A DNA stretch of 40,336 nt from a virus (IMGVR_UViG_643348545_000005); one strand, 5' to 3'. Positions 2,628 to 36,406 are shown, numbered from the stretch's first letter. Program-made: numbers and translations. Notes: generated by a model from the sequence alone, not told the origin.

Positions 2628-3752
2628 CTAACCATTGCTTTCCTTTTCAGCTATCCACTCGGGTATTCTTGCCTCCAGTTCAAGCCTTGTGGTGAAGCCG
2701 CTTCCGTCGATATTGTGTTCCACTTTTGCAATGAGCCAGTCCTGATTGTCTATCTCGGTTTTAAAGCCGGTTACCGTGCCATGCATTTCCGGGTAAAGCT
2801 CCGCTCTGCCCCGGGCCAGCGTGATGGAGAATTCAGCCGCACCGCGCTGTAATTGCTGCCACCTGGCGGCAGCTGCGCGCTGTGCAGCAATTTCATTTGG
2901 GTAGGTTTTTCTCAGAACGAACACGTTACCTTCTGCCCCCTCCATGTAGCTGCCTTCCCGGCTGCTGCTCTTTTCAGCGTGAGTTTTTCGTTTTTTTATG
3001 TTGACGGCTTTCTTTTTGCCATGATTCAAATCCAGCCAGTACGCCTTCACCCCTGTGTATGCCTGGCGATCGGCTATTCTGAACTGGTGACTGTCTCCGT
3101 CACTGCGTGCCAGTGCAAATGAGGGGAGTGGGCGCCCGTCAGCTGTCACGCCGCCACCCGGCAGAATGAACAGCAGACAGCCATTTTTGACGGTAGTGAT
3201 GGCTCCCAGCATATCAGCCATGCGGGTAAGGAATGACATGTCGCTTTCTTCCGTCTGGTCGGCATGATCGATTTCAATATCCATAAGCATATCGCTTATC
3301 TGGGCTTTCAGTCCGTAACGGTGGGCAATAGCGGAAACCACGCGTTCAACAGTCACGCCGTGCCAGGATACTTCCCGTTTGACGTTAAATTCCTCCCTGA
3401 AGTCTGCGCTGTTTGCACTCAGTGTCAGCCGATCCGGAGGTCCTTCATGAGCGACCTCATCAACAATGTAGGTGCCTTTATCAACCAGAGGCTCTCCCTT
3501 CCATCCCAGCATGACTCTGATGTGTGTTCCCCGCCCGGGGAGAGCCAGCTGCCCGTCGGCATCATCCAGCACAAGAGTGACCCTGTCTGCTTCAAACCCC
3601 CGGTTGTCTGTCATGGAAAGCGATATCACCCGGTTATTCAGTTCCTGAAGAGTGTTTTTATCCTGCTCCCTGTCCAGTGAAACGCTGAAATCAGGCATTT
3701 TCACCAGTTCTTTCAGGGGGGAATAAACCGTGTTACCGTTCAGCAATACCAT
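2628..3752 (-). CDS. D: Tail protein D (late control gene D family)
   Basis: Translation from MVLLNGNTV matches P2 gpD along its length (TDNRGFEAD, SADFR, FLTRMA, GGMTS motifs). Start moved to the ATG at 3752, which has a GGAGG RBS; the track ORF extends further upstream. Confidence 0.85.
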   Translation of the reverse strand: MVLLNGNTVYSPLKELVKMPDFSVSLDREQDKNTLQELNNRVISLSMTDNRGFEADRVTLVLDDADGQLALPGRGTHIRVMLGWKGEPLVDKGTYIVDEVAHEGPPDRLTLSANSADFREEFNVKREVSWHGVTVERVVSAIAHRYGLKAQISDMLMDIEIDHADQTEESDMSFLTRMADMLGAITTVKNGCLLFILPGGGVTADGRPLPSFALARSDGDSHQFRIADRQAYTGVKAYWLDLNHGKKKAVNIKKRKTHAEKSSSREGSYMEGAEGNVFVLRKTYPNEIAAQRAAAARWQQLQRGAAEFSITLARGRAELYPEMHGTVTGFKTEIDNQDWLIAKVEHNIDGSGFTTRLELEARIPEWIAEKESNG

Positions 3753-3906
3753 AATTCCTCCGTTTTTCCCGCCACAGTTGCATACCAGAAACACCACCGG
3801 AATGAGTTTGGGTTGTATGTGTATTGCGAGAAACCGCAGTTCGTGAAAAAGCTCCCCGTGTTCGTAAAGATCTCTGCTGAACTCACACGAATGCAGGGTG
3901 AATAAT

Positions 3907-25307: not shown

Positions 25308-25811
25308 TTAACGGAATGCGGATGGCGTTCTTCTTTGCAGCTTGCTGATAATATGCATCTTCATACTGTTTACTATCGGCAGCCATTCCCTGTCACCGTC
25401 TCCGTTGATGACCACGCGAATGGAGGTATCATCTTCCACGCGAACCCGAAGAGATACACCGTCTTTTCCGACGGAATGTAACTCCATTGCCAGGACTATG
25501 TTTACCGACTCTCCTTCATCGTGTGAGTCAACCCATGTTCTTACAGCCATCCGGAATATGTTATCTGTGTCGGTTGCAATCATATTTACCGGAAATGGCC
25601 TGAAGTCCCGATCGTTTCTGCACGGAAACCCCGTATCAACGTAACGATGATGCTCGCCGTCTTTGTCTTCCCATGTCTCTGAAGGCAATTCCAGCCACTG
25701 CTCATAAAAAGCAACCAGCTTTTCAGCCTGATTGCGCAGAATCCCTGTAACCTCCCGCCTCGCGTCCCGGCTCTTTTTGTTTGCCAGGTACAAATCGCGA
25801 AAATGGCTCAT
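25308..25811 (-). CDS. Hypothetical protein (167 aa), cargo gene at the portal/cos side
   Basis: Clean ORF with ordinary codon composition; no family I can recognise; lies in the variable region of P2-like phages. Confidence 0.5.
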   Translation of the reverse strand: MSHFRDLYLANKKSRDARREVTGILRNQAEKLVAFYEQWLELPSETWEDKDGEHHRYVDTGFPCRNDRDFRPFPVNMIATDTDNIFRMAVRTWVDSHDEGESVNIVLAMELHSVGKDGVSLRVRVEDDTSIRVVINGDGDREWLPIVNSMKMHIISKLQRRTPSAFR

Positions 25812-26356
25812 GTCGCTCTCCTTTGGTCTGTTTATGCCAGCCTGTATTCTGCGCTCACCTCATATTGTGCGCAAGTTTTCACCCGTGAATGACTGATACT
25901 TTAAATTCTATTAACTTTATGATTTCAGTGATTTTTGTCTCTCTTTTTTATCCCGTTCGTCACGTCCGTTTCCCTCCCGATCTCCGACCTCGCCAGACGC
26001 AATCAGACGCATTCTGACGGCCTGTTTCCCTGACCATGTTTTGATGTGGTTTTTCAAAACTGACTTTACTGCGTGCGTATCACGCGCCATACGACCCCAA
26101 ATAAAGCAACCCGCCTTCCATCCCTCAATTCGGGCGCCCTTCCCTCGTCGCCTGCGCGCTGCAATTGCCTCGTTTTTCGTGCACCGTGCAAACCGGCCTC
26201 AGCCAGCGCCGTTACTGGGCTGAATGGGGATGAAACACATAAGAAAAATTGTGCAATTTCGTGCGCTTTTGTGCATTTTTTATCTTGCGATTTTTGGGGG
26301 TGGGTGGTGATGATAATCATCTGTCTGAATCAGTGGTGTATTGCCGGGTGAGAACT

Positions 26357-26893
26357 GTGAAAAATTACTCATATCCTTATTTAACTTTTGTCACGCTTTC
26401 TGTTTTGGGGGGGATTTTTCTTTTTATTTGGTGGCGAAACGATGTTTACAGAATTACCTACCTTTATTCGTTCACGACAAACTGCCTTGTTTCAGTGTCT
26501 GTGGTGCTTTCGGTTTTTGTCTCACTGTGCCTGTTGAAAAAGAACCTGGTTGATCGGTCTAAATTTACCGGGGTTACATCGTATCTTAAGTTTTTTTCGG
26601 GTATGTGCCTTCTTACCTGGATGATTCTGTTTACCCTCCTGGTTACGCTGATATATTTTCTTCCGGGTGAAGATTCATTCTATTCCGCTCCCTATGAGTA
26701 CAGTCGCGGTAGCTCAAAAAGTTGTTCAGGGGCATTTGTTGATGATCCTGATTTGCAAAAAACAATCTTTATTTGCTACCCATACGGTGACTATCAGGAT
26801 GGTAATGTGATTTATGTGAAGAAGCGTGTGAATGCGCTGGGTGCGGTGGTCACCTATGCATACGCGACAAGCGGCCGATTTCGGTTTGACTGA
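26357..26893 (+). CDS. Hypothetical AT-rich membrane protein (about 3 TM helices plus a roughly 85-aa soluble C-terminal domain)
   Basis: ORF in an AT-rich island; hydrophobic segments; start uncertain (GTG at 26357 with a GGGTGAG RBS, or the internal ATG near 26599). Confidence 0.35.
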   Translation: MKNYSYPYLTFVTLSVLGGIFLFIWWRNDVYRITYLYSFTTNCLVSVSVVLSVFVSLCLLKKNLVDRSKFTGVTSYLKFFSGMCLLTWMILFTLLVTLIYFLPGEDSFYSAPYEYSRGSSKSCSGAFVDDPDLQKTIFICYPYGDYQDGNVIYVKKRVNALGAVVTYAYATSGRFRFD

Positions 26894-26942: not shown

Positions 26943-27198
26943 TCATCGCCCGGTTCTTGAGCTGATAATGCTTTGCGTCAGCAGCTGCCAGCCCTCTTTC
27001 TGTTGCCCGTACTTGTCCTGATACCTGTTTACCTGCAAGTTTCCGTGCACCAGAATCAGATCGCCTTTTCTGTGTTTTGCCAGTTCTTCGTGCTGCTTCC
27101 CGAATGAAATAAGGTAAAGCCACATTGTGGTTGGCTGTTCTGCGCCATGGCAGGGTAGTGATACCGCCAGTTGTGCCGTTGTGACGTTTGAGGTAGCC
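26943..27198 (-). pseudogene. SSB-like OB-fold protein gene, 3-prime portion (interrupted by the IS)
   Basis: Translation ...TSNVTTAQLAVSLPCHGAEQPTTMWLYLISFGKQHEELAKHRKGDLILVHGNLQVNRYQDKYGQQKEGW aligns with the SSB core (W..V.LFGK...RKG..V.I.G.L..R.W.D..GQ); the frame runs up to the IS left end. Confidence 0.45.
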
Positions 27199-27252
27199 TG
27201 AGTTTAACGGACACTCCTTCCTGAAATAGAATGGCATCAGAAGGAGCTAATA

Positions 27253-27555
27253 ATGAGCAGAAAAACCCAACGTTACTCTAAAGAGTTCAAAGCCGAAGCT
27301 GTCAGAACGGTTCTTGAAAATCAACTTTCGATCAGTGAAGGCGCTTCCCGATTATCTCTTCCTGAAGGCACTTTAGGACAATGGGTTACCGCCGCCAGAA
27401 AAGGGCTCGGTACTCCTGGTTCCCGCACGGTGGCTGAACTGGAATCTGAAATTCTGCAACTGCGTAAGGCGTTAAATGAAGCTCGCCTTGAGCGAGATAT
27501 ATTAAAAAAAGCAACAGCGTATTTTGCACAGGAGTCGCTGAAAAATACGCGTTAA
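27253..27555 (+). CDS. IS3-family transposase OrfA (HTH)
   Basis: 100-aa ORF with the typical IS3-family OrfA leucine-zipper end (...LERDILKKATAYFAQESLKNTR). Confidence 0.85.
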   Translation: MSRKTQRYSKEFKAEAVRTVLENQLSISEGASRLSLPEGTLGQWVTAARKGLGTPGSRTVAELESEILQLRKALNEARLERDILKKATAYFAQESLKNTR

Positions 27556-28409
27556 TCGAACAATGGCGACAACAATTTCCCATTGAAGCGATGTGTCAGG
27601 TATTTGGTGTATCCAGGAGCGGTTATTACAACTGGGTACAGCATGAACCCTCAGACATAAAACAAAGTGATGAGCGGCTAAAACTGGAGATTAAGGTGGC
27701 ACATATCCGCACTCGCGAAACATATGGAACCCGGCGGCTCCAGACGGAGCTGGCAGAGAATGGCATCATCGTTGGTCGTGACCGACTGGCACGTCTTCGT
27801 AAGGAGCTAAGGCTACGCTGTAAGCAGAAACGCAAGTTCAGAGCGACTACGAACTCGAACCACAATCTGCCAGTTGCGCCAAATCTGCTGAACCAGACGT
27901 TCGCTCCTACAGCACCAAATCAGGTCTGGGTGGCGGACCTGACGTATGTTGCCACACAGGAGGGATGGTTGTACCTCGCTGGCATCAAAGATGTTTATAC
28001 GTGCGAAATTGTCGGCTACGCCATGGGAGAGCGCATGACAAAAGAGCTGACAGGTAAAGCCCTGTTTATGGCGCTCAGGAGCCAGCGCCCACCTGCCGGG
28101 CTAATCCACCACTCTGATCGAGGTTCACAGTACTGCGCATACGATTACCGGGTCATACAGGAGCAGTTTGGTCTGAAAACATCAATGTCGCGTAAAGGTA
28201 ACTGTTACGACAACGCTCCGATGGAAAGCTTCTGGGGAACGCTGAAAAATGAGAGCCTGAGCCACTATCGTTTTAATAACCGGGATGAAGCCATCTCAGT
28301 AATACGGGAATACATTGAGATTTTCTACAATCGTCAGCGTCGTCACTCTCGTCTGGGGAATATCTCCCCGGCAGCCTTCAGGGAAAAATATCATCAGATG
28401 GCTGCTTAA
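27504..28409 (+). CDS. IS3-family transposase OrfB (DDE catalytic domain), expressed as an OrfAB fusion by -1 frameshift at A AAA AAA G (27504-27511)
   Basis: The -1 frame is open from the slippery site and encodes an rve-type integrase core (...VADLTYV...HHSDRGSQY...NAPMESFWGTLKNE...). Confidence 0.8.
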   Translation, partial: KKSNSVFCTGVAEKYALIEQWRQQFPIEAMCQVFGVSRSGYYNWVQHEPSDIKQSDERLKLEIKVAHIRTRETYGTRRLQTELAENGIIVGRDRLARLRKELRLRCKQKRKFRATTNSNHNLPVAPNLLNQTFAPTAPNQVWVADLTYVATQEGWLYLAGIKDVYTCEIVGYAMGERMTKELTGKALFMALRSQRPPAGLIHHSDRGSQYCAYDYRVIQEQFGLKTSMSRKGNCYDNAPMESFWGTLKNESLSHYRFNNRDEAISVIREYIEIFYNRQRRHSRLGNISPAAFREKYHQMAA

Positions 28410-28442
28410 AAAAAGAACAAATGGTAGTGTCCGCTATTGCCA

Positions 28443-28527
28443 GTACACCTCAGTTGGTTCCTTTGGTTGTTCTCCTTGTGTTCGGGTCTGCTGCCAGTCG
28501 TCCCTCTGTTGCAACCTGTGTTGGCAT
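28443..28527 (-). pseudogene. SSB-like gene, 5-prime fragment on the other side of the IS
   Basis: ATG at 28527 with a GGGAGA RBS encodes MPTQVATEGRLAADPNTRRTTKGTN, matching the SSB N-terminal GNLGQDPEVRYMPNG signature; the frame does not join cleanly to the 3-prime part. Confidence 0.35.
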
Positions 28528-28559
28528 ATTTGTCTCCCGTGTTGGTTTTATTGTTGGGG

Positions 28560-28898
28560 TTAGATGACTGGCAGCTCTTCGCCAGCGCCGTAGATAAACA
28601 GAATTCGCTTCATGATTTCGCTTCGCTTGCAGTCCTGGATTACGGACGGCTTTTGTTGCTGTTCAGCCCGCCGCTCCAGCTCCAGTCGTTCCTTTTCCGT
28701 TGGCTTCCGGTAATGCGTTATCTTGTCCGTGTACCCGTCCACAACCAGCAGCCCTTCGCGTACCATCTTTCCGGCGGCCTGATTAATGATGGTCCTTTTC
28801 ACGCCCAGTTTTTCAACCAGCTCTGGCGCGCTGAAGCGTGCGTGCGTTTCCAGGTAGCGTAAAATGATTACCTTTCCGGTCATTCTGGGTGTCTTCAT
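28560..28898 (-). CDS. Hypothetical winged-helix DNA-binding protein (about 112 aa)
   Basis: AGGAG RBS before the ATG at 28898; the FSAPELVEKLGVKRTIINQAAGKMVREGLL segment looks like a winged HTH; ATGA overlap with the upstream gene stop. Confidence 0.45.
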   Translation of the reverse strand: MKTPRMTGKVIILRYLETHARFSAPELVEKLGVKRTIINQAAGKMVREGLLVVDGYTDKITHYRKPTEKERLELERRAEQQQKPSVIQDCKRSEIMKRILFIYGAGEELPVI

Positions 28899-29065
28899 TT
28901 GGCGGCTCCTTCGTTGTTCCGGCGTTCGCGGAGTTCGGTCAGTGCTGCCAGTAAATTTTCCCACCATGTTTCTTCCACAACCGGATTTCGTCGTGAAAGC
29001 AGCTGCTGCGCCGACTCAATCATTTTCGTAAGCTCTTTGTCGCTGATCCTCCTGATGTCGTTCAT
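28895..29065 (-). CDS. Hypothetical small protein (about 56 aa)
   Basis: GGAG RBS 7 nt upstream of the ATG at 29065; translationally coupled to the downstream gene. Confidence 0.4.
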   Translation of the reverse strand: MNDIRRISDKELTKMIESAQQLLSRRNPVVEETWWENLLAALTELRERRNNEGAAK

Positions 29066-29113
29066 GGTGTGCTCCTTCGGTTTGCTGTTTCTGGTCATGT
29101 TCATGGTCTTTTG

Positions 29114-29518
29114 TTACCTGCGTGATTGCCTGCTGGCGGCCGAATGCACATAGCTGACAATTGCCGCTTTTCGGTTAACGACGGCCAGCGTTCTTGCCAG
29201 TTCTTCGTTGAGTTTTCTGGTCTGTTTTTCGTGGTATGCCTGCATGATTTTTCCTACGGGAGTCAGTGGTTCAGGCTCTGATATGGCGCGACGAGGGCGC
29301 ACGGCAACGATGAATGCGCTTCTGTCGGTGTTGGTTCTTGCAGTCAGGATGTCGGTCATGACGGTATCTGTGCTGCGATCGGGGTTTGCGATCGTGATCT
29401 CCAGTTCGTCGCCTGGCTGTGGTCGAACACTGACGCCGCTCAGCGTCAGTGCCGGAATGCGTCCACTCATGATGGCGCTGAAATCATGGTGCTGGAGTAC
29501 ACAATGGAATCGTGTCAT
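29114..29518 (-). CDS. Hypothetical protein (134 aa) translationally coupled to gene A
   Basis: Start overlaps the A stop (ATGA); same position as the small ORF downstream of A in P2. Confidence 0.5.
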   Translation of the reverse strand: MTRFHCVLQHHDFSAIMSGRIPALTLSGVSVRPQPGDELEITIANPDRSTDTVMTDILTARTNTDRSAFIVAVRPRRAISEPEPLTPVGKIMQAYHEKQTRKLNEELARTLAVVNRKAAIVSYVHSAASRQSRR

Positions 29519-32037
29519 GGGTTCACCTCCGGTTGATCTGCTGCCACCAGGCTTCGTGATTTCTCATCCCAGTGCACAATCCGCCCGTCAGGCAGGCGAA
29601 CGCGTGCACCTCTGTGTACGGAAAGTGCTGCGCCACTGTGTAGCTCCTCGCCCGTCGCGCTCAGTGCCGACTTGATTACGGTGGTGGTGACGTCAGTCAG
29701 CGGCAATGCTGTACGCACATGTATGACGTCATCGGGCGTGGTGGGGCCGCCGGTTTTCACGGTTTTTGTGTCAGATGGCGCATCTTTCAGCTGCCTGGTG
29801 AGTTGTTTTCGCTTTGTGGGGGTCAGTGACCTTAACCACTCACCCAAATCACCTCCCGGGACGACCAGTTTTTGTTCTTTCCTGGTTTCCGGTGGTGGGT
29901 TTTTACCCTCTCCGGTGTCTGTTTTTTCATCATGGGGACAGTTATTGCCACGAGTCCAAGGTGCGGCAAAGCCGCACTCAACGTCAAAACCCTCGTCCGT
30001 GCGGTCTTCGTTTTCCGGCTTACGTCTGACCAGTTTCCAGGTGTCCGGGTGGGTGCATATGGTGTGGCGCTCCCCGAGTAACGGGGCGCGGACGCCGTAA
30101 ATGCGCTGCGGGAATTCGCCGTAGTCGTTGGCCTCATCTGCGGTTTCGTATGCGGTGCGGATCAGGTACAGGTTGCGTGGAATGAGCACGCCGCCCTGAC
30201 GGTTGATGTAGGTGGCAAAACACCCCACGTCAGCGGCGGCCAGAATGGCGTCAATGTCGTCATGGTCCAGGCGCTTCGGTGATGCGGGGTTACGCTCCAT
30301 TTGTCCGGCAAGGCGGCGGAGTTCACGCCATACCTGGCGGGGCGGGATACCGAAGAACTGGAACTGCCGGATGCGGTGGAGACTCGCCCAGGCAATGGCG
30401 TTTTCCACGGTTTCCGCCATGGTTTTTCCCGATTCTTTATCGGCGTAAGGTTTGCCGGTTTTCGGGTCATTGTCGTGAAAGGTGCTGGCGTCCAGGTTCT
30501 TGCCAATATAGGTTGCGATGTAGCTTGCCGGTGTGCCTTTTGCCGGGTCGATTTTTTCGCACTTGAAGCGCGGAGAAATATCATTCCCCAGTTCTGCGCG
30601 ATCTGATTTGATTGCTGCGTCACGCATGATTTCAATGATGCGTTCTTCATTGTCCGGGGCGGTGAATACCAGCATGTGCCAGTGCGGTGTGCCGTCATGG
30701 TGTGGCTCAACGGTGCGCACCCCGTACCAGCTCAGGCCTTCTTTGTTGAGTTTTTTTCTTGCAGCTGCAAAGACGTCGTAAACCAGATAATCACTGGCAT
30801 CGCGCACGGTGGCACCGTTGTATTTCGGGTTCAGGCTGCCGTCCTCGTTTACGCTGTGAAAGCGGGAAGGGCAGGTCACTGTCACGAAGAACGCGGAGTC
30901 ACCACGCGATTCGGCGACCTGTTCCATCCCTCTGACGCAGGCCATCATCTCGTTGCGGCGGTTGCGCGGATTCCCCAGCCCTGACCAGTACACGTCCTCC
31001 AGACTCAGGCGTTCACCGTCTTCGTTTTCAATGTCCCAGCTTTTGAGAAAATCACGGGTGCGCTGGCGTTTCTCCCGGAATTCCTGGAGTGACTCATGGC
31101 TGATGTAGGGGGATGCCTTGCGCGATACTCTTCCGGCGGCACGCAGTAATTCCTCCCGCCAGAGATCAGCGAGGTGGCGCAGCTGGTTGTTCCACCAGGT
31201 AGCGCAGGTGATACGCATTACCGCGCCCGGTACCAGTTCAGGGTCTGGTGCCGTGCGGCGGTCACGTCTGATCTCGAGTGACGGCCAGTATGGTGGGTTC
31301 ACGCCCAGTTTTATTGCCATGCGCGCCAGCTGCTGGTAAGTCAGCAACCAGGTAAACAGGTTATCGTCGCCTTTTCCTGTCCGCTCAGTAACTTCATCAC
31401 ATATGCGTTCCAGTTCGGTGGAAAATGCCGCCGCCGTTAGTGTGGCAAGGCGCTGAATTTGATCACGGTTGAGTTGTGGCAGCATGAGTAATTCATCAAG
31501 GCGATGGCGTGCTGCGGTGGCTTTGAATGCCGTCGTGGCGAAGCATTCATTCACCTGTTCGATGCGTTTCAGGCGTGTGCGCAGTCCACGGCGAACAAAG
31601 TTATCAGCCACGTGTGTATTGTTGTTTTTCACGCCTTCATGGCGGGCGCTTTGCTGTTTGCGGTTTAAACGCGTCAGATCACGAATGAGCGCGTTGCCAA
31701 GAAACGAGGGCAGGGCGCGAAGTTCTGCCATGGCTTCCGATACCACCGTGGGCGGATTCTCGCGTTTGTGCCGCGCCAGTTTTTCCAGTCTGATCCGACG
31801 CTCTTCGTTGTGGTGAAGGTGCGAATTAATTCGCTTCCCTTCGTCTGTGGTTGTCAGAAAGGCGACGGTTTCTTCATCCAGTCTGGCATCAATGCGAATG
31901 TCCTCGTTGATGTAGCTCTGAATGGCCTGGCGTAATGCGGTTGGCTGTGCTCTGCCGAACGTTTCAGGATCGATAACCGGTAGCGGGGCGTTCCACGGGT
32001 ACGCCAGTTGTGCGTTATGGTCGCTCATGCGTCGCAC
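29515..32037 (-). CDS. A: Replication initiation endonuclease A (rolling-circle nickase)
   Basis: 840 aa; similarity to the P2 gpA family, including TVTCPSRFH and the active-site tyrosine region YIATYIGKN. Confidence 0.9.
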   Translation of the reverse strand: MRRMSDHNAQLAYPWNAPLPVIDPETFGRAQPTALRQAIQSYINEDIRIDARLDEETVAFLTTTDEGKRINSHLHHNEERRIRLEKLARHKRENPPTVVSEAMAELRALPSFLGNALIRDLTRLNRKQQSARHEGVKNNNTHVADNFVRRGLRTRLKRIEQVNECFATTAFKATAARHRLDELLMLPQLNRDQIQRLATLTAAAFSTELERICDEVTERTGKGDDNLFTWLLTYQQLARMAIKLGVNPPYWPSLEIRRDRRTAPDPELVPGAVMRITCATWWNNQLRHLADLWREELLRAAGRVSRKASPYISHESLQEFREKRQRTRDFLKSWDIENEDGERLSLEDVYWSGLGNPRNRRNEMMACVRGMEQVAESRGDSAFFVTVTCPSRFHSVNEDGSLNPKYNGATVRDASDYLVYDVFAAARKKLNKEGLSWYGVRTVEPHHDGTPHWHMLVFTAPDNEERIIEIMRDAAIKSDRAELGNDISPRFKCEKIDPAKGTPASYIATYIGKNLDASTFHDNDPKTGKPYADKESGKTMAETVENAIAWASLHRIRQFQFFGIPPRQVWRELRRLAGQMERNPASPKRLDHDDIDAILAAADVGCFATYINRQGGVLIPRNLYLIRTAYETADEANDYGEFPQRIYGVRAPLLGERHTICTHPDTWKLVRRKPENEDRTDEGFDVECGFAAPWTRGNNCPHDEKTDTGEGKNPPPETRKEQKLVVPGGDLGEWLRSLTPTKRKQLTRQLKDAPSDTKTVKTGGPTTPDDVIHVRTALPLTDVTTTVIKSALSATGEELHSGAALSVHRGARVRLPDGRIVHWDEKSRSLVAADQPEVNP

Positions 32038-32441
32038 TCCCCGGCAGTTGCCACCTGAAACGCCGCGCGGTACAGCACGAGAAGGCGCTGGTATTCGCCG
32101 ATAAAACCTTCTGCGGTGTATATACCTTTCACGGCCACGCTGTGGGTTGTCATTTCCAGAACCAGCGCCATCTCTGATGACGACCAGCTGATGGCGGTAC
32201 TGTCGGTGCCGTTGATGTGAAATAAACCCAGTCCATCACCATCACCTTTCACGTCCACGCGGTAACGACCGTCCACGGTGAAGGAGAAATCCCCGTATGT
32301 GGTGACGCTGCGGGCAGCCTGTTTACAGGCGCGGCGGTAATAGTCGTGCCAGTTGTTCAGGCGGGAAGCCAGCAGGGGATCCACCGCCCACATCCAGTTA
32401 AAGAAGTCCTGAATATCTGAAAGTCCCTTAACGCTCTTCAT
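32025..32441 (-). CDS. Hypothetical protein (138 aa), overlaps the start of A
   Basis: ORF immediately upstream of A in the same operon. Confidence 0.5.
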   Translation of the reverse strand: MKSVKGLSDIQDFFNWMWAVDPLLASRLNNWHDYYRRACKQAARSVTTYGDFSFTVDGRYRVDVKGDGDGLGLFHINGTDSTAISWSSSEMALVLEMTTHSVAVKGIYTAEGFIGEYQRLLVLYRAAFQVATAGECDA

Positions 32442-32509: not shown

Positions 32510-32731
32510 TTATCGGTGCTGGTTGATGAGGCTTTGCAGTTCTGCCAGATCTTCGGCGAGATAGCTGAAGACAGCAGCGCAGTAACGGTTTGACAGCGCG
32601 TGCGTGCGCTCATGCAGCATGTTGATATGCATGATTTGTGCGACGCGTGTTGCGCGGAAAAGTCTGCGGTTGATTTCGCTGCGGATGTGAAGACGCTCAG
32701 CGCGGGCGCGCTGTTGCTTGCGGTTTGCCAT
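32510..32731 (-). CDS. Hypothetical protein (73 aa)
   Basis: Small basic ORF upstream of the 138-aa gene. Confidence 0.4.
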   Translation of the reverse strand: MANRKQQRARAERLHIRSEINRRLFRATRVAQIMHINMLHERTHALSNRYCAAVFSYLAEDLAELQSLINQHR

Positions 32732-33069
32732 GGTGTGGCCTCTTTGCTAGTAAGTTGTGAAAACTCACCATCCAGAGCTGCGAAACTGTGGGTGGCGAGA
32801 CGTACGAGGTTCGCAGTACCGGCTAGCAAAGAACCCGGCCCGACCGAAGTCGGCCCCGTACGCCCCGCCATAATTCTGACGCGAAAAAGACGTGGCAATA
32901 CAGTACGCACAAAAAAACCGCTGGCGCGGTTGTGCGCTTTGCTAGTCGGCAGGCTGCGAAACCCGGCACCCGTTTTATGAGGTGCAGCGGAAATGTAACC
33001 CGACACGACGAGCGCTGGCAAGCGGTTTTTGTGTTGCGTGTTGATGTGGTTAGAATGTTGCGAATTAAT

Positions 33070-33114: not shown

Positions 33115-33579
33115 ATGAGTGATAAGCTCCCTTCTGATTACGAAATTCTTTTTGACCTGTGGTACAGCTACTGGCTTGAACACATGACAAACCTTCTCCA
33201 CCGTCGCGCTTCCTTGGTTCTGAGGATTAGCGCTTTCCTTGCGATTGTTGCCGCATTCATTTTTTGCGACAGCGCAACGTTTGTTTTCGCCAGTGTGGTG
33301 CTCTTTCTGGTGTGGCAGGTCATGGCTGCCTCTCTTTCTATCAGAGCTGAAAAGGCTGAATGGCAGGCGCTTAGCTATCAAAGACTGATTAGCCAGCGCC
33401 ACGTGCTCACCCCGGAATGCATGATTGCGCGCCTCTCCTTTGTTGAGGAAAGTGACAGCCCCGTGATGGAGTGCATGATCAACCTTGCCTGGAATAAAGC
33501 CTGTGAGACGGTTGGTAGCTCTTCGCGCAATCATGTTTCGATCTCCGGTCGGTTACTCAGTCGCCTGTGTGGCTTTTGA
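33115..33579 (+). CDS. Hypothetical 2-TM membrane protein (154 aa), antisense to the early operon
   Basis: ATG at 33115; two hydrophobic helices (LVLRISAFLAIVAAFIFC, FVFASVVLFLVWQVMAASL); its 3-prime end overlaps the convergent DUF4406 gene. Confidence 0.45.
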   Translation: MSDKLPSDYEILFDLWYSYWLEHMTNLLHRRASLVLRISAFLAIVAAFIFCDSATFVFASVVLFLVWQVMAASLSIRAEKAEWQALSYQRLISQRHVLTPECMIARLSFVEESDSPVMECMINLAWNKACETVGSSSRNHVSISGRLLSRLCGF

Positions 33580-33903
33580 TTTGTGAAGCAGCTGCGCGAC
33601 GGTTTCGCCGGCTGCCCGGTTTTCCGGGAATGACACTGGCATGTTCAGTTTGAGTGCCATTACGTACTCCGCCCGCGCGCCAGCTGAATCCACCCAGCCT
33701 TCCAGTAAGTAAATGGCATCGGCACACATGAGCATCGGAATACAAATGCTCATGTACTGCTGCTGGCTTAATCCTTCCGGCAACGTGGCAGGGTTCAGCA
33801 CAACGTGCCCGTCTGCCGCGAGCCTCATCGCCTCTGTGAAAAACGCCGTTCTGTTGTGATCTTTGTATCCGGTCATTGGACCGGCGATATAAATCACTGC
33901 CAT
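33553..33903 (-). CDS. DUF4406 family protein (nucleoside 2-deoxyribosyltransferase-like)
   Basis: IYIAGPMTG N-terminal motif typical of DUF4406 proteins found in P2-like early regions. Confidence 0.55.
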   Translation of the reverse strand: MAVIYIAGPMTGYKDHNRTAFFTEAMRLAADGHVVLNPATLPEGLSQQQYMSICIPMLMCADAIYLLEGWVDSAGARAEYVMALKLNMPVSFPENRAAGETVAQLLHKSKATQATE

Positions 33904-34112
33904 GCTTTACCTCCCGTATTGCGTGTTGCTGTCAGCACGCGTACTTCTTCCATGTTCGTGGCGCAGAAGTGCGAACCGTTGATAAGGCGGATGTGATGCA
34001 TCTCAGAATTGCGTGAGTCCTGGCGTGTCATGCCCTGGTCAATCAGGCTTTCGTCTACCTCGTACTGACGGCCGTTGGCTGTGAACCGGATAACGGTTGA
34101 TTCCTGGATCAT
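33894..34112 (-). CDS. Hypothetical protein (72 aa)
   Basis: ORF overlapping its neighbours within the early operon. Confidence 0.4.
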   Translation of the reverse strand: MIQESTVIRFTANGRQYEVDESLIDQGMTRQDSRNSEMHHIRLINGSHFCATNMEEVRVLTATRNTGGKAWQ

Positions 34113-34345
34113 TGCTGACTCCTTTGCCCGGCAGATTTCTCGTTGAGCTGCTTTTTAAGGGTGGCGATTTCACTTTCCTGATCCTGAATCACCCGGATTG
34201 CTTCCATGGTGATCCTCAGTGAGATTGCTGAAGCGATAACGAGATCTGGTCTTCCAGCAGCTGCGATAACTTTTGCTGCTTCCTCATGTGCACGGGCGAT
34301 GAGACGCAATTCCCGCAAAAGCTCTTTGTTGTTTTCGCTATTCAT
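34109..34345 (-). CDS. Hypothetical protein (78 aa)
   Basis: ORF overlapping its neighbour within the early operon. Confidence 0.4.
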   Translation of the reverse strand: MNSENNKELLRELRLIARAHEEAAKVIAAAGRPDLVIASAISLRITMEAIRVIQDQESEIATLKKQLNEKSAGQRSQQ

Positions 34346-34380
34346 TTCCTGACTCCGGTGTTACTGATTCATCTGTTTAT

Positions 34381-35361
34381 TCACGTACTGGCAGGGGTAA
34401 ACATCACGCTGTAAGTTGCATCTCCCGTTACAGGTCCGCAGTCCGGGCAGTAGCCACCGCCATGGTGACCGCAGGCGTCGCACTGTCTCAGGGTGGCGAT
34501 AACCTCCGGTGCTGATTCCCGGGTTCTTGCGCCAACGCTTCGTGGTGCCTGTATGCAGTTCATCCGGTAACCCCGATAAATGCGTCGTGTTTCCGGTGTG
34601 TCGGAATTGGAGATGGTGATGCTGGTCATGCCGCCCGTTTCCTGTGAAAGGCGGTCAAGCGCTGCCCTCAGACGAACGTGCTCGTCTTCATCGAATGGTT
34701 TTCCGTAGGCGGTAAAATTGTCCCGGCCACTGAATTGCAGGTAAGGGGGATCGCAGTACACGCAAAGCGTGTTGCCCATGCCGAACAGGTGACTGGCAGA
34801 GTTCAGCGTATCCTTAAAATCTGCGTGGATAAGCAGCGTTCGGGTGCTGTTTGCCTTGTCTGCAAATGCGCGGATTTCACGCTCAGGGAAGTAGGGCTTG
34901 CGGTAGCAGCCGAAAGGCACGTTAAAATCGCCTTTTCCGTTCACGCGGAACAAACCGTTAAAGCTGTGCCGGTTCAGGTACAAAAACATGGCGGCCAGTC
35001 GCAGTTCACGGCGGTCGCTTATTCCCGTTCTGCTGTTCAGGAAGGCATGATTCTCTGCGTTAAAGGTTTCGCGAATGATGAGATAGTCACCCCTGTTGTT
35101 GTGGTTCAGGAACAGGGTTTTCGCCTCGTCGATCAGGCTGTCGGTGTTGTCCCTGGCTTGCCGGTAGAAATTAATCAGCGCACCATTGGAATCACCCAGG
35201 ATGTAACGCTTGTAACTGGTGTTCATGAATACCGATGCGCCACCCACAAACGGCTCAACCAGGCAGTCTGCTTCTGGCAGATGCGCCTTCAGTGTGTTCA
35301 TGATGCGACTTTTTCCGCCCACCCATTTAAGCGGCGTGCCGGATAACAGTTCTTTGCTCAT
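34381..35361 (-). CDS. dam: DNA adenine methyltransferase (Dam family, N6-adenine) with a C-terminal Cys4 zinc-ribbon extension
   Basis: LKWVGGK (AdoMet motif I) and DPPY (motif IV) match Dam family signatures; C-terminus CDACGHHGGGYCPDCGP. Confidence 0.8.
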   Translation of the reverse strand: MSKELLSGTPLKWVGGKSRIMNTLKAHLPEADCLVEPFVGGASVFMNTSYKRYILGDSNGALINFYRQARDNTDSLIDEAKTLFLNHNNRGDYLIIRETFNAENHAFLNSRTGISDRRELRLAAMFLYLNRHSFNGLFRVNGKGDFNVPFGCYRKPYFPEREIRAFADKANSTRTLLIHADFKDTLNSASHLFGMGNTLCVYCDPPYLQFSGRDNFTAYGKPFDEDEHVRLRAALDRLSQETGGMTSITISNSDTPETRRIYRGYRMNCIQAPRSVGARTRESAPEVIATLRQCDACGHHGGGYCPDCGPVTGDATYSVMFTPAST

Positions 35362-35585
35362 AACGCGGCCTCTTTGTTATAGGTTTCGTGCGTTAATAAA
35401 TCCCATGACGCCCCGTTGTTTTTGCTCAGCAATCGCCAGCGAAAACCGATTCTTATTACCAGGTAGTCGTGGGGTTTTATGCGTGAAAAATTCCGCACGC
35501 CGTCGCGGAATAAACGCAGCGATGCGCGGGCTTTTCTTTCCACGTTCAGGGGGGGGCAGCAACACACATTCAGGATGGCGACCAT
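35358..35585 (-). CDS. Hypothetical small protein (75 aa)
   Basis: ORF wedged between the exonuclease and dam genes; atypical composition, so low confidence. Confidence 0.25.
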   Translation of the reverse strand: MVAILNVCCCPPLNVERKARASLRLFRDGVRNFSRIKPHDYLVIRIGFRWRLLSKNNGASWDLLTHETYNKEAAL

Positions 35586-35594
35586 GGCTTCACC

Positions 35595-36185
35595 TCATAT
35601 GTTCAGGAATGGTGTTGTGAAGCGCTGCCAGATTTCTGACACGACCTTTGCCTGGTAAACGGCATCGCCCAGTGCAGTGTGAGCAATAGCCTCCTTTCCT
35701 GATCTGCCTGGCATTTTCCATCCAGTTGATTCAGCCATGGCGATAAGCGGGCGCATACAGCGCTCGTTCCAGTAGCACCAGGGGATGCTTTTTTCTCCGG
35801 CTGTGCGTGTTATGGCGGATTTCAGGATCGGGAAATCGAAGGATGCGCCTTTGCACCATATGGTCAGTGAATTGCCCGGGCTTTCGTCATGCATATTGCG
35901 TGAAATGAACGCCAGAAATTCGGTTACTGCCGCAAGCTCTGTTCCCTCTGCGTTGCGCAGGCAGGATCTGGCCTCCACGGATTGTCCGGCCCACCATACA
36001 GCGGTGGCTGCATTGACGGTTCCGCCGTTGCGTTCTGAATCCACCGGGTCGATGAATTTCTCAAACTGCTTGCCCAGCTTTCCGGTGAACGGGTCGAAAA
36101 ACACCGCCCCAATCGCGAATATGGCTGCGCCCGGTCCGTTACCCAGTGTTTCGGTGTCAATCATGAGATGGTTCATTATGCGCAC
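35595..36185 (-). CDS. DEDD-type 3-prime to 5-prime exonuclease (DnaQ-like fold)
   Basis: N-terminal Exo I motif MIDTETLG and overall size typical of phage-encoded DnaQ-like exonucleases. Confidence 0.6.
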   Translation of the reverse strand: MRIMNHLMIDTETLGNGPGAAIFAIGAVFFDPFTGKLGKQFEKFIDPVDSERNGGTVNAATAVWWAGQSVEARSCLRNAEGTELAAVTEFLAFISRNMHDESPGNSLTIWCKGASFDFPILKSAITRTAGEKSIPWCYWNERCMRPLIAMAESTGWKMPGRSGKEAIAHTALGDAVYQAKVVSEIWQRFTTPFLNI

Positions 36186-36406
36186 CCCTTCAGTTCGTCT
36201 GGGTTGGCGAGTATTGCAATCAGTCGTTCAATGGCTGCGCAGGTTTCCTGTGGACAGGTGTGTGTCTCTTTCGCTGTCTCAGTCAGCTCGCGCAGTAATT
36301 CGCAGATATGTGCACGCTCGGCTTTTCTTGCGGCCATGCTGATATGCGCATGATGGTTAGCTGGTCTGGCGGTTATTTCTCTGCCGGGTGATTCGGCTGT
36401 TCTCAT
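36176..36406 (-). CDS. Hypothetical Cys-containing protein (about 76 aa)
   Basis: ATG at 36406 with an AGGAG RBS; the track ORF extends upstream. Confidence 0.4.
   Translation of the reverse strand: MRTAESPGREITARPANHHAHISMAARKAERAHICELLRELTETAKETHTCPQETCAAIERLIAILANPDELKGCA

Follow-up and report, generated by a model that had tools for sequence, protein, structure and literature searches.

The ren gene of phage lambda has been without an explanation since 1980. The supplement of Thomason et al. (10.1101/2021.04.19.439022) describes the lambda genes O, P and ren as overlapping and co-translated, and cites Weigel and Seitz for Ren accompanying initiator-helicase-loader modules. The same supplement reports that ren mutants are excluded by Rex, that suppressors map to O and P, and that two-hybrid assays detect binding of Ren by both RexA and RexB. 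In phage P2, gene A is directly followed by orf91, which starts 4 nt before the A stop codon and encodes a protein matching DUF3850 (E 1e-16) and ASCH (E 2e-10), with the motif GKKRAEFR. The present analysis concerns three small genes, here called g1, g2 and g3, located behind gene A of a P2-like (Peduoviridae) Escherichia coli prophage. They occupy positions 28560-29518 of a stretch of viral DNA of 40,336 nt (IMGVR_UViG_643348545_000005, referred to below as the window), and in close relatives the prophage is integrated next to dmsA. We find that g3 is a homologue of lambda Ren in a rolling-circle replication operon, and that g1 holds the slot of P2 Orf91 and is predicted to have a similar fold. 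We put the probability of these identities, together with the operon architecture described here, at roughly 0.6. The genes are the following.

29515-32037, minus strand: gene A, which encodes a replication endonuclease of the rolling-circle type, about 837-840 amino acids (aa) long and belonging to a 'large-A' clade; its stop codon overlaps the start of g1.
29114-29518, minus strand: g1, 134 aa, coupled to A by an ATGA overlap.
28895-29065, minus strand: g2, 56 aa, a helix-loop-helix protein; its stop codon overlaps the start of g3.
28560-28898, minus strand: g3, 112 aa, a member of the Ren family whose N-terminal part is a winged helix-turn-helix (wHTH).

The identity of g3 is established by full-length similarity. 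Residues 3-108 match PHROG 142, annotated 'Ren-like exclusion protein', with an E value of 2.2e-29. A tblastn search matched g3 to 170 phage records; the alignment with lambda ren spans 88% of the length at 41% identity (E 4e-13). Full-length identity between g3 and Ren proteins is 41-43%, with 24 invariant alignment columns; the invariant blocks comprise MTGK (within the shared block MTGK..I..YL.TH), INQAA, YYR and C..S..M.R.L, and GLL is a further shared block. g3 departs from lambda Ren in that its N terminus is longer by 5 residues, 6 residues are inserted and the C-terminal tail differs. All 170 matched records are less than 60% identical to g3 and none among the matches listed is a P2-like phage; the g3 subtype was not found in any of the 50,697 complete phage genomes searched. 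An earlier note on this DNA, made from the sequence alone, had stated that none of the three proteins matches a family that it could name. For g3 this statement has to be abandoned.

The setting of g3 is in part that of lambda ren. Both genes are promoter-distal in a replication operon, and g3, which follows A on its strand, overlaps the preceding gene g2 by an ATGA just as lambda ren overlaps P by 4 nt. The coupled partner is different: lambda ren is coupled to a gene for a replication protein, whereas g3 is coupled to a 56-aa orphan. In the lambdoid loci inspected, the Ren gene comes directly after, and overlaps, the gene for P or for a DnaC-type loader; among the matches listed, its neighbour is P, a DnaC-type loader or an unannotated gene. 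The replication module itself is also of another type. Lambda Ren goes with the O/P-type initiator and helicase loader, whereas g3 goes with a rolling-circle nickase of the Phage_GPA family (Pfam E 2e-108; phrog_91 E 3e-243), carried in RefSeq relatives under the name 'replication endonuclease', and no O or P homologue was found in the window-type operon. A rolling-circle, A-type operon is an unusual context for a Ren homologue.

The three reading frames lie behind A with the coordinates and strand that the earlier note had given, and the ATGA overlaps at the A/g1 and g2/g3 joints, as well as a ribosome binding site for each gene, can be read directly from the sequence. The end of A reads ...ccATGAcacg, so that the g1 start codon (29518) overlaps the A stop codon, with GGAGG 7 nt upstream. 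The joint between g2 and g3, gccaaATGAagaca, contains the ATGA overlap at 28895-28898, and GAAGGAG is found 7 nt upstream. The g2 start at 29065 is preceded by AAGGAG-N6-ATG and the gene stops at 28895. An in-frame upstream ATG at 29104 would give a protein of 69 aa; this start is chosen by RefSeq in window-type prophages, and the diverged relatives L005 and L033, which have no equivalent of the ATG at 29065, have an upstream g2 start. The g2 start site is the one uncertain detail of the gene coordinates; the window has a strong Shine-Dalgarno sequence before the ATG at 29065. Ratios of non-synonymous to synonymous substitution rates against diverged relatives, which are saturated at synonymous sites, were 0.17-0.32 for g1, 0.16-0.49 for g2 and 0.14-0.26 for g3. 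Purifying selection thus acts on all three frames, and therefore g1, g2 and g3 are real genes and not chance open reading frames (ORFs).

The g1 protein has no family in Pfam, NCBIfam or PADLOC, and it falls in an unannotated PHROG. Its relatives are found in E. coli only, and form 25 clusters at 90% identity in a word-indexed search and 3 clusters at 50% identity in an exhaustive HMMER search of 1.84e9 representatives; three further weak matches from the latter (E ~1e-5) were dismissed as repeats in giant proteins. No match to g1 was found in the phage collection, either at the DNA level or by tblastn, and a g1 profile yielded only noise against PDB sequences. The best AlphaFold (AF2) model of g1 has the order b1-a1-b2-b3-b4-b5 (residues 3-75), followed by one long basic helix (residues 87-133), and its core matches the PUA/ASCH topology as described in PMC7641849. 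A Foldseek comparison of the model with viral models returned DUF3850 and ASCH phage proteins (E 2e-4 to 1e-2). At the level of sequence profiles the link is marginal: a hhalign comparison of g1 with a profile of DUF3850 proteins from nine phages gave a P value of 0.0085 over 73 collinear columns, but a probability of only 4.7%.

The five-stranded barrel with a helix after strand 1 that is predicted for g1 is the one found in P2 Orf91 and other phage DUF3850-ASCH proteins, and a variable C-terminal extension after the barrel is common to g1 and the relatives of Orf91. Moreover, g1 holds the same coupled slot behind A. The earlier note had named homology to conserved P2 replication accessory proteins present in all relatives as the result that would tell against its proposal; such a likeness has emerged in part for g1. 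At the sequence level the two proteins diverge. No significant similarity links g1 to Orf91 or to the phage DUF3850 and ASCH proteins (PF12961 and PF04266, respectively, PUA clan), and the motif GxKxxExR, which defines ASCH proteins and lies in the alpha1-beta2 cavity (PMC6803910), is replaced by x-R-x-P-x-L-T-L. Residues 19-26 of g1 read GRIPALTL; the K, E and R of the motif are missing in all 13 family members, R20 and P22 are invariant, and G19 is not conserved. The C-terminal region of g1 is a 47-residue basic helix and, unlike Orf91 and DUF3850, the g1 family is confined to E. coli prophages. We therefore describe g1 as resembling ASCH proteins in its predicted fold and in its position, which falls short of demonstrated family membership; the motif comparison indicates that it probably does not possess canonical ASCH pocket chemistry. 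An ASCH-fold gene is also found next to A in an Eganvirus, the 186-like Yersinia phage vB_YpM_MHG96, where a DUF3850/ASCH gene (3504-3785) lies immediately upstream of A; at this place phage 186 itself has a PAPS-reductase-like orf.

The g2 protein matches phrog_14672 (E 6e-35), and its homologues occur in E. coli only. Its conserved core is ISD.EL..MIESAQQLLSR.NPVVEETWWENLLAALTELRERR, and the AF2 model, with a mean confidence (pLDDT) of 79.6, consists of helices at residues 9-24 and 32-55. No usable match was obtained in Pfam, NCBIfam or PADLOC, tblastn against the phage collection gave only noise, and a fold search found no match below E 0.3.

The distribution of the genes was scored by tblastn over 32 g1-carrying loci from complete E. 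coli genomes, IMG/VR and one metagenome. A large A gene (830-857 aa) is found directly before g1 in every locus in which the upstream sequence is present, always with a 4-nt overlap. This adjacency is kept even in the metagenomic relative L006, whose g1 and A proteins are 45% and 55% identical to those of the window. Thus g1, which the earlier note had counted among the accessory genes of the variable region downstream of A, accompanies every large-A replicase found. The presence of the other genes is nested: g1 occurs in all 32 loci, g2 in 17, g3 in 11 (all with g2) and a gene for a short single-stranded DNA-binding protein (SSB) in 7 (all with g3), while 6 loci have g2 without g3. Other small coupled ORFs can stand in place of g2 and g3, namely an ORF of 82-112 aa (L015 and L018), a pair of 88 and 193 aa (L006) or genes for hypothetical proteins (L003 and L004). 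The 88-aa gene of L006 was considered as a relative of g2 and showed no similarity to it. Because presence is nested and the genes are replaced by other ORFs, the 'operon' is best described as a chain of nested add-ons. The accessory operon proposed in the earlier note, in which the trio was joined to a broken SSB gene, therefore stands as the distal end of the A operon but not as one co-inherited unit. Finally, L002 is 59% identical to the window in g1 but 93% in g2 and 90% in g3, so that a joint made by recombination must lie close to the g1 3' end. Among 5426 complete E. coli genomes, megablast found the window-type stretch in 38.

In the early operon of the minus strand, the genes are ordered 3'-5' exonuclease, ParE-like gene, Dam-type methylase, 'derepression protein', 138-aa ORF and A. 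We propose that g1, g2 and g3 are promoter-distal genes of this early (replication) operon, and that they would represent three separate add-ons, not one machine. On the coding strand from A to the SSB gene of an intact relative, neither a sigma-70-like promoter nor an intrinsic terminator was predicted by simple consensus scans. The GC content of the g1-g3 stretch is 0.52-0.53, like that of the phage backbone, and differs from that of a neighbouring low-GC moron. From these two observations we infer expression in the lytic phase: the three proteins would be made only in lytic development, by read-through and translational coupling from A, and g1 would be produced in step with A. As the constant partner of the large A protein, g1 would be a divergent PUA barrel that has lost GxKxxExR and gained a long basic C-terminal helix; it may bind nucleic acid (RNA, or single-stranded or modified DNA) at or near the replication intermediates of A. 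The g2 protein, whose gene is coupled to g3, would probably be a small adaptor. The g3 protein would act like Ren, as a replication-linked winged-helix protein guarding phage replication from Rex-type exclusion by resident prophages; alternatively, it could modulate phage replication. A short SSB follows in some relatives, and in the window its gene is inactivated by an insertion sequence (IS). These specific biochemical roles of g1, g2 and g3 are tentative, and we regard them as doubtful in detail.

Several points weigh against this proposal, most of them against the roles. The molecular function of Ren is itself described as unknown in the supplement of 10.1101/2021.04.19.439022. Ren genetics point to O and P, which the window phage lacks. 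Of 5426 complete E. coli genomes, 99 carry lambda-type rexAB, and most of these are K-12 laboratory strains; with rexAB so rare, protection against Rex is unlikely to be the main selective force, and the anti-Rex version of the g3 role is weakened both by this rarity and by the absence of O and P. The proposed timing of expression derives from simple consensus scans. As for g1, a base-pocket or catalytic function may have been lost together with the ASCH motif. Neither g1 nor three divergent homologues matched PF04266 or PF12961 at E<=1, a hhalign comparison with a shallow profile made from Orf91 only gave a probability of 0.2, and of the five AF2 models only the best reached a pLDDT of 82.8, the other four scoring 54-62.

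These results for g1 could mean that it is unrelated to ASCH proteins and that the fold match is an artefact of AlphaFold working from a shallow alignment. In that case g1 would be a clade-specific orphan, for example a helper that binds A through its C-terminal helix. The alignment comprised 12 sequences, ranging from near-identical to 57% identical; four of the five models are of low confidence, no match to a hidden Markov model was obtained and GxKxxExR is missing. However, two independent structure searches pointed to the same fold, and the position of g1 parallels that of P2 Orf91. We therefore consider the orphan interpretation unlikely.

If g3 were instead an ordinary MarR-type transcription factor, acting on phage or host promoters, for instance in late-gene timing, g1 and g2 could be unrelated fillers. 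RefSeq names g3 a 'MarR family transcriptional regulator', and g3 matches phrog_1687, a 'MarR family regulator', with an E value of 5e-10. The winged-helix-like segment noticed earlier in the 112-aa protein is indeed present: residues 10-55 match MarR_2 (E 2e-5), GntR (E 7e-4) and HTH_24, and this N-terminal wHTH of 45 residues is like that of MarR/GntR regulators. However, all these matches are under the Pfam gathering cut-offs (25.0 bits versus 27 for MarR_2 and 12.9 versus 24.6 for MarR, over residues 10-53 only), and since they cover nothing but this segment, the RefSeq name describes only the wHTH of g3. The protein has 112 aa, the flanking dimerisation helices of MarR proteins are missing, and the remainder of g3 is Ren-specific. 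By gathering score and by full MarR architecture, g3 is thus not a member of that family, and its best and sole full-length match is Ren (E 2e-29). Moreover, late control in P2-like phages is exerted by Ogr, which is present in the relatives. Taken together, these data make a MarR-type regulator quite improbable.

Finally, it is very unlikely that g2-g3 or g1-g2 form a toxin-antitoxin or abortive-infection pair carried as a lysogenic-conversion moron like tin and old in P2. Small, overlapping and coupled genes would fit such a pair, one product is a DNA-binding wHTH as in many antitoxins (g3 gave weak PADLOC matches to WH domains, E 9e-4), and the place behind A is known as a hot spot for cargo (a TumE-type toxin-antitoxin system beside the trio in L005, as well as the two P2 genes just named). 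However, no toxin, antitoxin or defence family was found in Pfam, NCBIfam or PADLOC, the last returning nothing for g1 and g2. The genes are co-directional with A and coupled to it with no predicted promoter of their own whereas P2 tin and old are expressed from a separate, divergent transcript. Over its full length g3 is homologous to Ren, which lambdoid phages carry without a g2-like partner, and presence is nested, not strictly paired.

Ren genes are common in Shiga toxin (Stx) phages and other lambdoid phages, so that Ren is far more widespread than its sole known antagonist. No carrier of the g1-g3 trio was seen among the 60 genomes listed of the 99 with rexAB, and rexAB is too rare for a test of co-occurrence. 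A scan of GTDB for Ren relatives revealed no new contexts and returned mostly apparent lambda contaminant contigs. In assemblies of Bradyrhizobium, Paenibacillus, Pseudomonas, Shewanella, Oceanobacillus and others (L038-L054), Ren matches were 40-42% identical to g3, the level of lambda Ren itself, and several of these contigs have low coverage and a length of ~48.4-48.5 kb. They look like contamination of the assemblies with phage lambda DNA.

Downstream of g3, a 33-nt spacer containing GGGAG leads to the SSB gene. The elements of this part of the window are listed below.

28490-28575, minus strand: possible RNA stem, in which the last codons of g3 (28563-28575) pair with codons 9-12 of the SSB gene (28490-28502).
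28453-28526, minus strand: 5' fragment of the SSB gene, about 25 codons, cut by the IS; its ATG at 28526 is preceded by GGGAG at a distance of 6 nt.
27189-28452, plus strand: IS3-family IS of 1264 bp, with orfA at 27253-27555 and orfB at 27591-28409, delimited by comparison with L001.
26943-27188, minus strand: 3' fragment of the SSB gene, collinear by blastn with L001 7792-9000 and matching SSB by tblastn.

In the relatives the intact SSB gene encodes a protein of 105 aa with an OB-fold (Pfam SSB, PF00436, E 1.7e-13), like other short phage SSBs. In the window this ORF is split by the 1264-bp IS, on either side of which lies one copy of a duplicated 3-bp target (27186-27188 and 28453-28455), and the gene is therefore inactivated; the disruption of an SSB-like gene, already suspected in the earlier note, is confirmed. 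The length of 105 aa alone suggests that the phage SSB does not have the long C-terminal tail of E. coli SSB. The end of the IS is 100% identical to many Stx phages. By its size and transposase, the element is IS600-like. A transposase with one residue difference over the 150 aa compared lies downstream of g1 in the unrelated variant L015, and the IMG/VR entry L010 appears to be the same IS-bearing prophage.

The possible stem is a 13-nt inverted repeat with 92% complementarity that encloses the Shine-Dalgarno sequence and start codon of the SSB gene; the z-score of its minimum free energy is -2.2. In L033 and L022 one compensatory change (G-C to U-A) and one U-A to U-G change are observed, and one pair is broken in L012. 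As a weak indication from base pairing, the stem may serve as a translational-coupling hairpin for SSB.

Several other genes of the window deserve mention. The 138-aa ORF (32025-32441, minus strand) overlaps the start of A; it matches phrog_3237, has no Pfam family, and is found with the large-A replicase in most loci, with 47% identity even in the metagenomic relative. With this ORF upstream and g1 downstream, A is flanked by coupled unknown genes on both sides. Further upstream in this early operon (~33500-36200, minus strand), homology with L001 and L037 points to genes for a DUF4406 protein, a 3'-5' exonuclease and a Dam-type DNA adenine methylase, and to a toxin-like ORF of the ParE family. 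N6-adenine methylases and proteins with an ASCH fold are frequently associated (PMC4738411), which lends interest to the methylase. The ORF for the 73-aa 'derepression protein' (32510-32731, minus strand) is closely preceded by gathering-level Rfam matches to C4 antisense RNA (RF01695, 82.8 bits, 32788-32875, minus strand) and to isrK (RF01394, 64.3 bits, 32911-32985, minus strand). They suggest that an antirepressor of this P2-like prophage is controlled by antisense RNA in the manner of P1 and P7. On the other side of the trio, a low-GC (0.41) ORF at 26249-26893 (plus strand) separates the SSB remnant from the portal gene. Its product, 178 aa long in RefSeq relatives, has hydrophobic stretches and no Pfam match; it probably fills the lysogenic-conversion 'moron' slot held by tin and old in P2. 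Beside it is a 167-aa ORF (25308-25811, minus strand) matching phrog_5091, of unknown function.

Two aspects of this locus are worth noting: a replication module that is not lambdoid contains a Ren homologue, and an ASCH fold is repeatedly linked with A. Otherwise these are ordinary small phage genes, which RefSeq lists as hypothetical proteins or under the name 'MarR family' and for which PHROGs has families. Three P2-like lineages have an ASCH-fold gene beside A: it follows A in P2, precedes it in an Eganvirus and, in degenerate form, follows it in the window; this recurrence hints at a conserved, unstudied partnership. It is conceivable, if improbable, that Ren-family proteins are portable replication-coupled counter-defence or regulatory factors for any phage replicon rather than accessories of O and P, and that the P2-like version may need g2 as an adaptor. 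The P2-like Ren would then constitute a natural experiment, indicating that the target of Ren is a sensor of phage replication, in the host or in a prophage, and not O or P. In the same way, g1 could be a helper dedicated to A, a nickase that acts in cis. The link of Ren to O/P-type modules had been read, in the supplement cited above, as a sign that the role of Ren is bound up with O and P. The occurrence of a Ren homologue in an operon of the rolling-circle, A-type kind suggests a Ren function independent of O or P, and the P2-like g3 offers a second, simpler system for testing that function.
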